Shown here: in pieces, positions 24,109-24,314 of the stretch
Numbering within the stretch: the first letter of the stretch is position 1
Layout: the number at the start of each line of letters is the position of its first letter
From: Escherichia coli
Lineage (GTDB): Bacteria > Pseudomonadota > Gammaproteobacteria > Enterobacterales > Enterobacteriaceae
Reading direction: 5' to 3' (one strand)
Length of the DNA stretch: 64,000 bases
Assembly (NCBI RefSeq): GCF_003334405.1
Contig: NZ_QOWM01000004.1
The notes under the pieces: generated by a model
What the model saw: only the letters and a program-made list of their open reading frames with translations
Database searches by the model: none
Told to the model about the DNA's origin: nothing
Translations under genes and position numbers: made by a program

Positions 24109-24314
24109 TAAATTTAATAGATGCTGATGGGGGCTTTCTTAATATACGTCTGGATGCTCGCCATTTCGTAGCCCTGTTTTTGAAAGCGCTCTGTCATAAT
24201 GAGAGTTACCCGATACCTTATTATCAACAGGTAACTCTCAATCTTTAAAAAACGTCTGTGTTTTTAAATGTGATAAACCTTATACCTTGAGTACATGGAG
24301 AGAATAATCGCTTA

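Follow-up and report, generated by a model that had tools for sequence, protein, structure and literature searches.

[quoted passage not shown] The hairpins of this class are terminator-like, carry neither U-tracts nor upstream A-tracts, and are followed by sequences in which C exceeds G; the 3' ends have been attributed to protection of the RNA from PNPase and RNase II (PMC6061677). Canonical intrinsic terminators are defined here by a G+C-rich stem of at least 5 bp, a loop of 3-8 nt, and at least 5 U residues in the 8 nt directly 3' of the stem. In overlapping bidirectional terminators (Ju et al. 2019; bioRxiv 10.1101/2022.10.23.513370) one hairpin serves two convergent transcription units. 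REP/BIME sequences and other extragenic palindromes of E. coli are found as well in 3' UTRs, between convergent genes.

The palindrome described in this work is located between the convergent ycgN and hlyE genes, in a stretch of E. coli K-12 DNA of 64,000 nt analysed as a whole (the window). It shares with the protective stem-loops of Rho-dependent transcripts the stability, the location in a 3' UTR, the lack of both U-tract and upstream A-tract, a C>G bias downstream, and the report of Rho-dependent termination in the neighbourhood (±800 nt), but has a larger loop (15-19 nt), and published maps of steady-state 3' ends list none at its base. Like REP/BIME elements, it is an extragenic palindrome placed where two convergent genes meet, in a 3' UTR, and a role as a 3'-UTR regulator is conceivable; in contrast to them, it is single-copy, AT-rich and without an Rfam match. 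It also appears to differ from the REP consensus. The reading that we favour makes the palindrome one more case, so far missing from annotation, of a known class, and not a new principle.

Position and folding of the repeat

The ycgN gene, on the + strand, ends at 24108, and the stop codon of hlyE, on the - strand, corresponds to 24315-24317. The two genes are convergent, and the intergenic gap (24109-24314) spans 206 nt; coordinates of E. coli K-12 MG1655 are obtained by adding 1,205,168 to those of the window. The gene ends place the repeat in the convergent ycgN/hlyE intergenic region, in agreement with the initial sequence-only reading. The same reading had described a 10-bp perfect inverted repeat with a 19-nt loop. 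The repeat is real and the spacer length correct, but the arms are one pair longer: the left arm TGAGAGTTACC (24200-24210) and the right arm GGTAACTCTCA (24230-24240) are 100% complementary, form 11 perfect pairs, 5 of which are G-C, and flank the 19-nt spacer CGATACCTTATTATCAACA (24211-24229). No annotated feature underlies the hairpin in any of the records inspected.

The 24200-24240 region can form a stem-loop in the 3' UTR of either gene. In + strand RNA it lies about 92-132 nt past the stop codon of ycgN, the last gene of the ycgL-ycgM-ycgN unit, and is followed by the tail AUCUUUAAAAAA; in - strand RNA it lies about 75-115 nt past the hlyE stop codon, and is followed by the tail UUAUGACAG. 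In the fold predicted for the hlyE-sense RNA, one U.G and one G-C pair lengthen the stem to 13 pairs and reduce the loop to 15 nt, 24198 and 24242 being unpaired. In the ycgN-sense RNA a small inner helix of 4 bp (GAUA/UAUC) is predicted within the loop. RNA fold prediction, one of the checks proposed in the sequence-only reading, yielded a stable stem-loop in both senses, with ΔG of -17.1 kcal/mol (z -6.8) on the + strand, ycgN sense, and of -19.5 kcal/mol (z -5.1) on the - strand, hlyE sense. The mean pair probability of the 11 stem pairs is 0.98 in six longer transcript contexts, covering both strands. By stability the hairpin ranks second in the 64 kb among 51-nt windows with a G+C content of at most 40%, and falls in the top 1-4% of all windows.

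Perfect inverted repeats with arms of at least 11 nt and loops of 3-30 nt occur seven times in the window, as against 0.51 ± 0.68 in 200 dinucleotide shuffles, and most of those with arms of such length sit in intergenic 3' regions. Chance occurrence had been indicated at the outset as a finding that would dismiss the repeat, and holds for its count only: at least one repeat of this type is found in 41% of the shuffles, and a single one is therefore not significant by number, but the class is about 14-fold enriched in the real sequence, and none of 200 shuffles folds as stably as the hairpin.

Transcript 3' ends

A Rho termination region has been reported on the + strand, with a peak at position 1229494 of MG1655, which corresponds to 24326 in the window (Adams et al. 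2021, PMC7815308, supplementary file 2). The peak sits about 86 nt downstream of the hairpin on the ycgN strand, the resolution of the mapping being only ±800 nt. In the 800 nt upstream and downstream of 24326, 103 and 27 3'-end reads, respectively, were counted in untreated cells, and 169 and 208 in the presence of bicyclomycin; the downstream/upstream ratio is thus increased 4.7-fold by the drug (Rho score 4.7, p = 4e-12; PMC7815308). The + strand ratio measured with bicyclomycin, 1.23, points to little Rho-independent stopping, and the drop in reads is abolished, at a low level of expression. The Rho-dependence published for this region concerns the + (ycgN) strand only. Bicyclomycin is also able to induce new transcription in DNA silenced by H-NS, and hlyE is normally silenced in this manner.

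In the curated Term-seq set, which covers three growth conditions, no 3' end is found on either strand at MG1655 1229200-1229599, and the nearest one is a low-scoring end inside ycgM (PMC7815308). This denotes low expression, and the absence of ends in the interval carries little weight. Full-length SMRT-Cappable-seq reads delineate a ycgL-ycgM-ycgN and a ycgN-only unit, and do not cross hlyE. Searches of the literature for ycgN and hlyE together, or for a clyA terminator, retrieved nothing relevant. A permissive Rfam scan of the 23500-25000 region returned noise only, the best match (mir-2076) reaching 19.3 bits (E = 0.9) where the gathering score is 90.

The sequence downstream of the hairpin is biased towards C in both senses. 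In hlyE-sense RNA the C/G ratio is 1.4-2.0 in 78-nt windows located 14-169 nt beyond the hairpin, in a rut-like stretch spanning 24040-24160 on the - strand; in ycgN-sense RNA the ratio is 1.1-1.4. The bias accompanies a stable stem-loop, located in the 3' region and not enriched in U, as in the protective class. Among the roles listed in the sequence-only reading, that of an RNA 3' stabiliser fits best with the robust stem, the Rho region nearby on the + strand, and the combination of a U-less hairpin with a C>G sequence downstream, though no 3' end has been mapped at the hairpin. To the reading that the 3'-UTR stem-loop blocks exonucleases and thereby sets where Rho-terminated ycgN and hlyE mRNAs end, acting possibly as a weak pause site or terminator as well, we assign about an even chance of being correct. 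The large loop, the ±800 nt mapping of Rho action, the lack of a curated 3' end, the restriction to E. coli and the average level of polymorphism (see below) all count against it.

According to the scheme proposed, the repeat would act as RNA and not as DNA, folding into a stem-loop in the overlapping 3' UTRs of the convergent ycgLMN and hlyE units. Since no usable U-tract is present, the hairpin alone would release RNA polymerase inefficiently, and polymerases running beyond it would be stopped by Rho. We infer that PNPase and RNase II, proceeding in the 3'-to-5' direction, would trim the tail up to the base of the stem, which would block them, and that the resulting stabilised 3' ends would fall near 24241-24246 in ycgN mRNA and, when the gene is expressed, near 24199-24194 in hlyE mRNA. 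The hairpin may also make polymerase pause, adding slight termination in either direction. If the scheme is confirmed, one hairpin would define the 3' ends of both ycgN and hlyE (clyA) mRNAs in E. coli, and might affect the amount of haemolysin message that survives once silencing by H-NS is lifted. The locus would also provide a clean natural case of a single U-less hairpin serving two convergent Rho-terminated genes, of interest mainly to those who study the expression of hlyE/clyA and the formation of 3' ends at convergent genes.

Distribution among genomes

Of 5,426 complete E. coli genomes, 5,411 contain a segment of 112 nt encompassing the hairpin, each of them at a single place, even at blastn sensitivity. 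About 5,400 retain the hairpin itself, among them strains in which hlyE is a pseudogene. A second copy of the arm is missing in the 64-kb window, and the search for the motif elsewhere, suggested in the sequence-only reading, found it to be single-copy in the window as in every E. coli genome searched. Membership in a repeat family (REP/BIME, MITE or IS ends) was rejected, since neither blastn setting revealed a second copy in E. coli.

The hairpin is absent from 80 ycgN loci of other species of Enterobacteriaceae, other Escherichia included, in which homology to E. coli ends at, or just past, the ycgN stop codon. In Escherichia sp. MOD1-EC7003 the first 70 nt of the gap (24109-24178, + strand) are 90% identical to E. 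coli, and are the only part of the gap common to another Escherichia species. Beyond the equivalent of 24178, the MOD1-EC7003 sequence continues with what we take to be a diverged IS1 end, followed by dsbB. The IS1-like end, which starts at the equivalent of 24179, is included in the 3018-3150 interval of this locus (L007), where hlyE-umuDC are missing. From 24109 to 25494 the sequences of E. whittamii and Escherichia sp. E1V33 diverge from that of E. coli, and neither species has hlyE. In comparison with these two, the hlyE segment, which extends from the ycgN stop codon to about 104 nt upstream of umuD (24109-25494), is specific to E. coli; at its site both carry 1.0-1.8 kb of unrelated DNA, which in E. 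whittamii has no ORF larger than 79 aa. In E. albertii and at two other Escherichia loci umuD is not found within 2.5 kb.

The hlyE loci of Salmonella, where the gene is next to osmC, of Trabulsiella, and of one further lineage are devoid of the hairpin as well. The hlyE homologues of Trabulsiella and of one other lineage are followed by textbook U-tract terminators, and a 3' hairpin is on this ground functionally expected after hlyE. In the convergent hlyE-osmC gap of Salmonella, a different, non-homologous U-less hairpin is common to both genes. The Salmonella hairpin (CAGCCCG-N18/19-CGGGCTG; L085:2991-3022, L163:3084-3116) has an identical stem in S. enterica and S. salamae, and a loop differing at several positions. 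The notion that the hairpin travels with hlyE was accordingly rejected, the Salmonella, Trabulsiella and further loci having other 3' structures. Missing both from other Escherichia and from other hlyE loci, the element is specific to the E. coli arrangement. A divergent hlyE contig labelled as E. coli (L160), with two mismatches in the left arm, was left out because it appears to be a noisy assembly that contains a duplication.

IS1 hits the ycgN/hlyE gap repeatedly. In strain PEC41, IS1A replaces hlyE from 24153; in FELIX_MS533, IS1A is inserted right after the hairpin (24243/24244), at a junction in which CTCTCAATC is followed by GGTGATG.

Variation within E. coli

The 61-mer corresponding to 24190-24250 was compared with 5,406 E. 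coli records. The allele is identical to K-12 in 4,336 of the 5,406 records; 661 carry C24217T, in the loop, and 237 C24210T, which changes the innermost stem pair, in the left arm. C24209T, in the left arm as well, was seen once, and these two are the only stem variants found. Either change keeps a G.U pair in + RNA and introduces an A.C mismatch in - RNA; that two stem changes out of two preserve the ycgN-sense pair has a chance probability of 0.25, and hence means little. None of the E. coli sequences inspected varies in the right arm (24230-24240). Among approximately 29 sampled alleles, variable sites are 3 of 41 in the hairpin (7%) and 17 of 206 in the gap (8%), and neither compensatory changes nor covariation were found in the stem. 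Sequence comparison thus speaks neither for nor against selection on the structure.

Because compensatory changes and excess conservation are both missing, it is still plausible that the palindrome is fortuitous and has no selected function, a view that we consider less likely than the protective role. The repeat would have formed by chance or mutation in AT-rich, lineage-specific filler DNA, itself acquired or generated together with the hlyE segment, and its persistence in E. coli would be due solely to the youth of the species and the low divergence of the region. The frequency of comparable repeats in shuffled windows (41%), the confinement of the element to E. coli, with its absence from other Escherichia and from the hlyE loci of Salmonella, Trabulsiella and one other lineage, the ordinary density of variable sites, the lack of a curated 3' end in the gap, and the repeated IS1 insertions and deletions in the region, which have no obvious consequence, are all compatible with this origin. 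Yet, the real sequence has 14 times more such repeats than the shuffles, mostly in intergenic 3' regions, and a gap between convergent genes without any other terminator is just where a 3' hairpin is expected. Moreover, a 3'-UTR hairpin of -17 to -19.5 kcal/mol would physically impede 3' exonucleases, whether selected or not.

Comparison with intrinsic terminators

The hairpin has in common with canonical intrinsic terminators a stem of 11-13 bp, placed downstream of a stop codon and usable on both strands, and differs from them in stem composition, loop and tails. Only 5 of 11 pairs of the stem are G-C, and the loop measures 19 nt (+) or 15 nt (-), as against 3-8 nt. U residues are 4 of 8 in the tail 3' of the stem on the + strand (AUCUUUAA) and 3 of 8 on the - strand (UUAUGACA), as against at least 5 of 8. 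A scan of the 23900-24500 region for canonical terminators identified no site, and hence none in the 206-nt gap. A canonical intrinsic terminator was rejected on these grounds, and the view that the repeat is not a classical intrinsic terminator, already expressed in the sequence-only reading, is borne out. The statement that no U-tract is adjacent is essentially right as well, the tails reading only AUCUUU (+) and UUAU (-).

The hairpin could be alternatively viewed as a weak, non-canonical bidirectional intrinsic terminator, at which polymerases arriving from both sides would pause, and release would be aided by the short U-containing tails, by NusA/NusG, or by head-on or trailing polymerase collisions. 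We regard this as unlikely. The geometry is convergent, one hairpin is usable in both senses, as in overlapping bidirectional terminators, the tails are partly U-rich, and a collision model for terminators of that type has been described (bioRxiv 10.1101/2022.10.23.513370). However, the hairpin failed the terminator scan in both directions on loop length and U count, and the ratio of 1.23 reached on the + strand with bicyclomycin also argues against such a terminator, which is disfavoured because the drug abolishes the drop in reads. No Term-seq end is listed at the site. Overlapping bidirectional terminators differ from the ycgN/hlyE hairpin, which is flanked by CAUAA and AUCUUU instead of an A-tract and a U-tract, and for which overlapping 3' ends are not documented. 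In addition, hlyE is normally silenced, and polymerase collisions would therefore be rare.

DNA-level alternatives and metagenomic matches

A role of the repeat at the DNA level, whether as a dyad recognised by a protein dimer or tetramer, as a cruciform, or as a scar left by recombination or insertion at the edge of the hlyE segment, is very unlikely. The arms are perfect, and the repeat folds as single-stranded DNA at -9 kcal/mol; in turn, the motif is found nowhere else in the window, every E. coli genome has one copy of the element, and 30 bp separate the centres of the half-sites. The protein-binding dyad envisaged in the sequence-only reading consequently gains no support. Dimeric regulators do not typically have half-sites 30 bp apart, and a spacer of 19 nt makes the extrusion of a cruciform less favourable. 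Read against the consensus motifs, the repeat seems to have no attC-like RYYYAAC/GTTRRRY core, and no resemblance to IS terminal repeats. The hairpin lies just past 24178, where homology with one other Escherichia species stops, which could suit a scar, but this breakpoint is explained in MOD1-EC7003 by the apparent IS1-like remnant. Near 25495, where the segment specific to E. coli ends on the right, no sequence related to the hairpin was found, and a repeat bordering the islet was rejected for this reason.

A scan of metagenomes for both 10-nt arms retrieved E. coli contigs, as expected, along with about 25 unrelated matches at chance level and four related AT-rich contigs (L127, positions 1965-2022, L133, L134 and L138; ERZ17400xx). 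The latter have a G+C content of 35-38% and no ORF larger than 75 aa, match neither Rfam nor phages, and are probably copies of a eukaryotic repeat. The inverted repeat measures 13 bp in all four. L127, L134 and L138 match the - strand of E. coli over the exact 19-mer AAAGATTGAGAGTTACCTG and, at the same 19-nt spacing, over GGTAACTCTCA, the loop body and the flanks being otherwise unrelated; in L133 the left flank reads AATGATT in place of AAAGATT. The chance of sharing 19 + 11 nt with the same spacing is roughly estimated at 1e-4 to 1e-6, and this identity with unrelated contigs is a further point in favour of a DNA-level element. It is extremely improbable that the mechanism which inserted the hlyE segment left the hairpin at the segment border as a structure recognised in DNA or ssDNA, and that the match with these eukaryote-like metagenomic contigs reflects a shared hairpin-recognising mobile element and not coincidence.

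Other sequence features of the region

A weak mini-hairpin (UUUAAAAAC-N6-GUUUUUUAA), made of A/U only but for one G-C pair, is found at 24245-24268 on the - strand, in the hlyE 3' UTR. It is not conserved, and G24260A, present in 19 of the 29 E. coli sampled, disrupts the G-C pair. On the + strand a mechanical ORF of 47 aa (24105-24248), the GTG start of which overlaps the ycgN stop codon, spans the hairpin. It shows no sign of being a gene, and C24124T, a common polymorphism, changes an Ala codon of this ORF to Val. A promoter-like match (TTTAAA-18-GATAAT, 9/12) runs from 24249 to 24220 on the - strand, has the -10 hexamer inside the hairpin loop, and points into ycgN antisense; two promoter-like matches were found in the region and 1.3 are expected, that is, chance level.

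The six further perfect inverted repeats of the window, with arms of 11-15 bp, are located at 8942-8979, 11933-11968, 19060-19085, 34886-34914, 36922-36969 and 53918-53945. They include an AT-rich 14-bp palindrome (ATACTTTGTACAAT-N10-ATTGTACAAAGTAT), and a repeat with 15-bp arms (GTCAAGAATGGAGAG-N6), the flanks of which can pair further, though imperfectly. All six lack a clear U-tract after the repeat. A G+C-rich perfect hairpin (TTTTGCCGCC-N7-GGCGGCAAAA, -17.6 kcal/mol), with no U-tail on either strand, lies between ycgM and ycgN, at 23575-23601. The published start site of the ycgN-only transcript (MG1655 1228804, 23636 in the window) is located just downstream of it.
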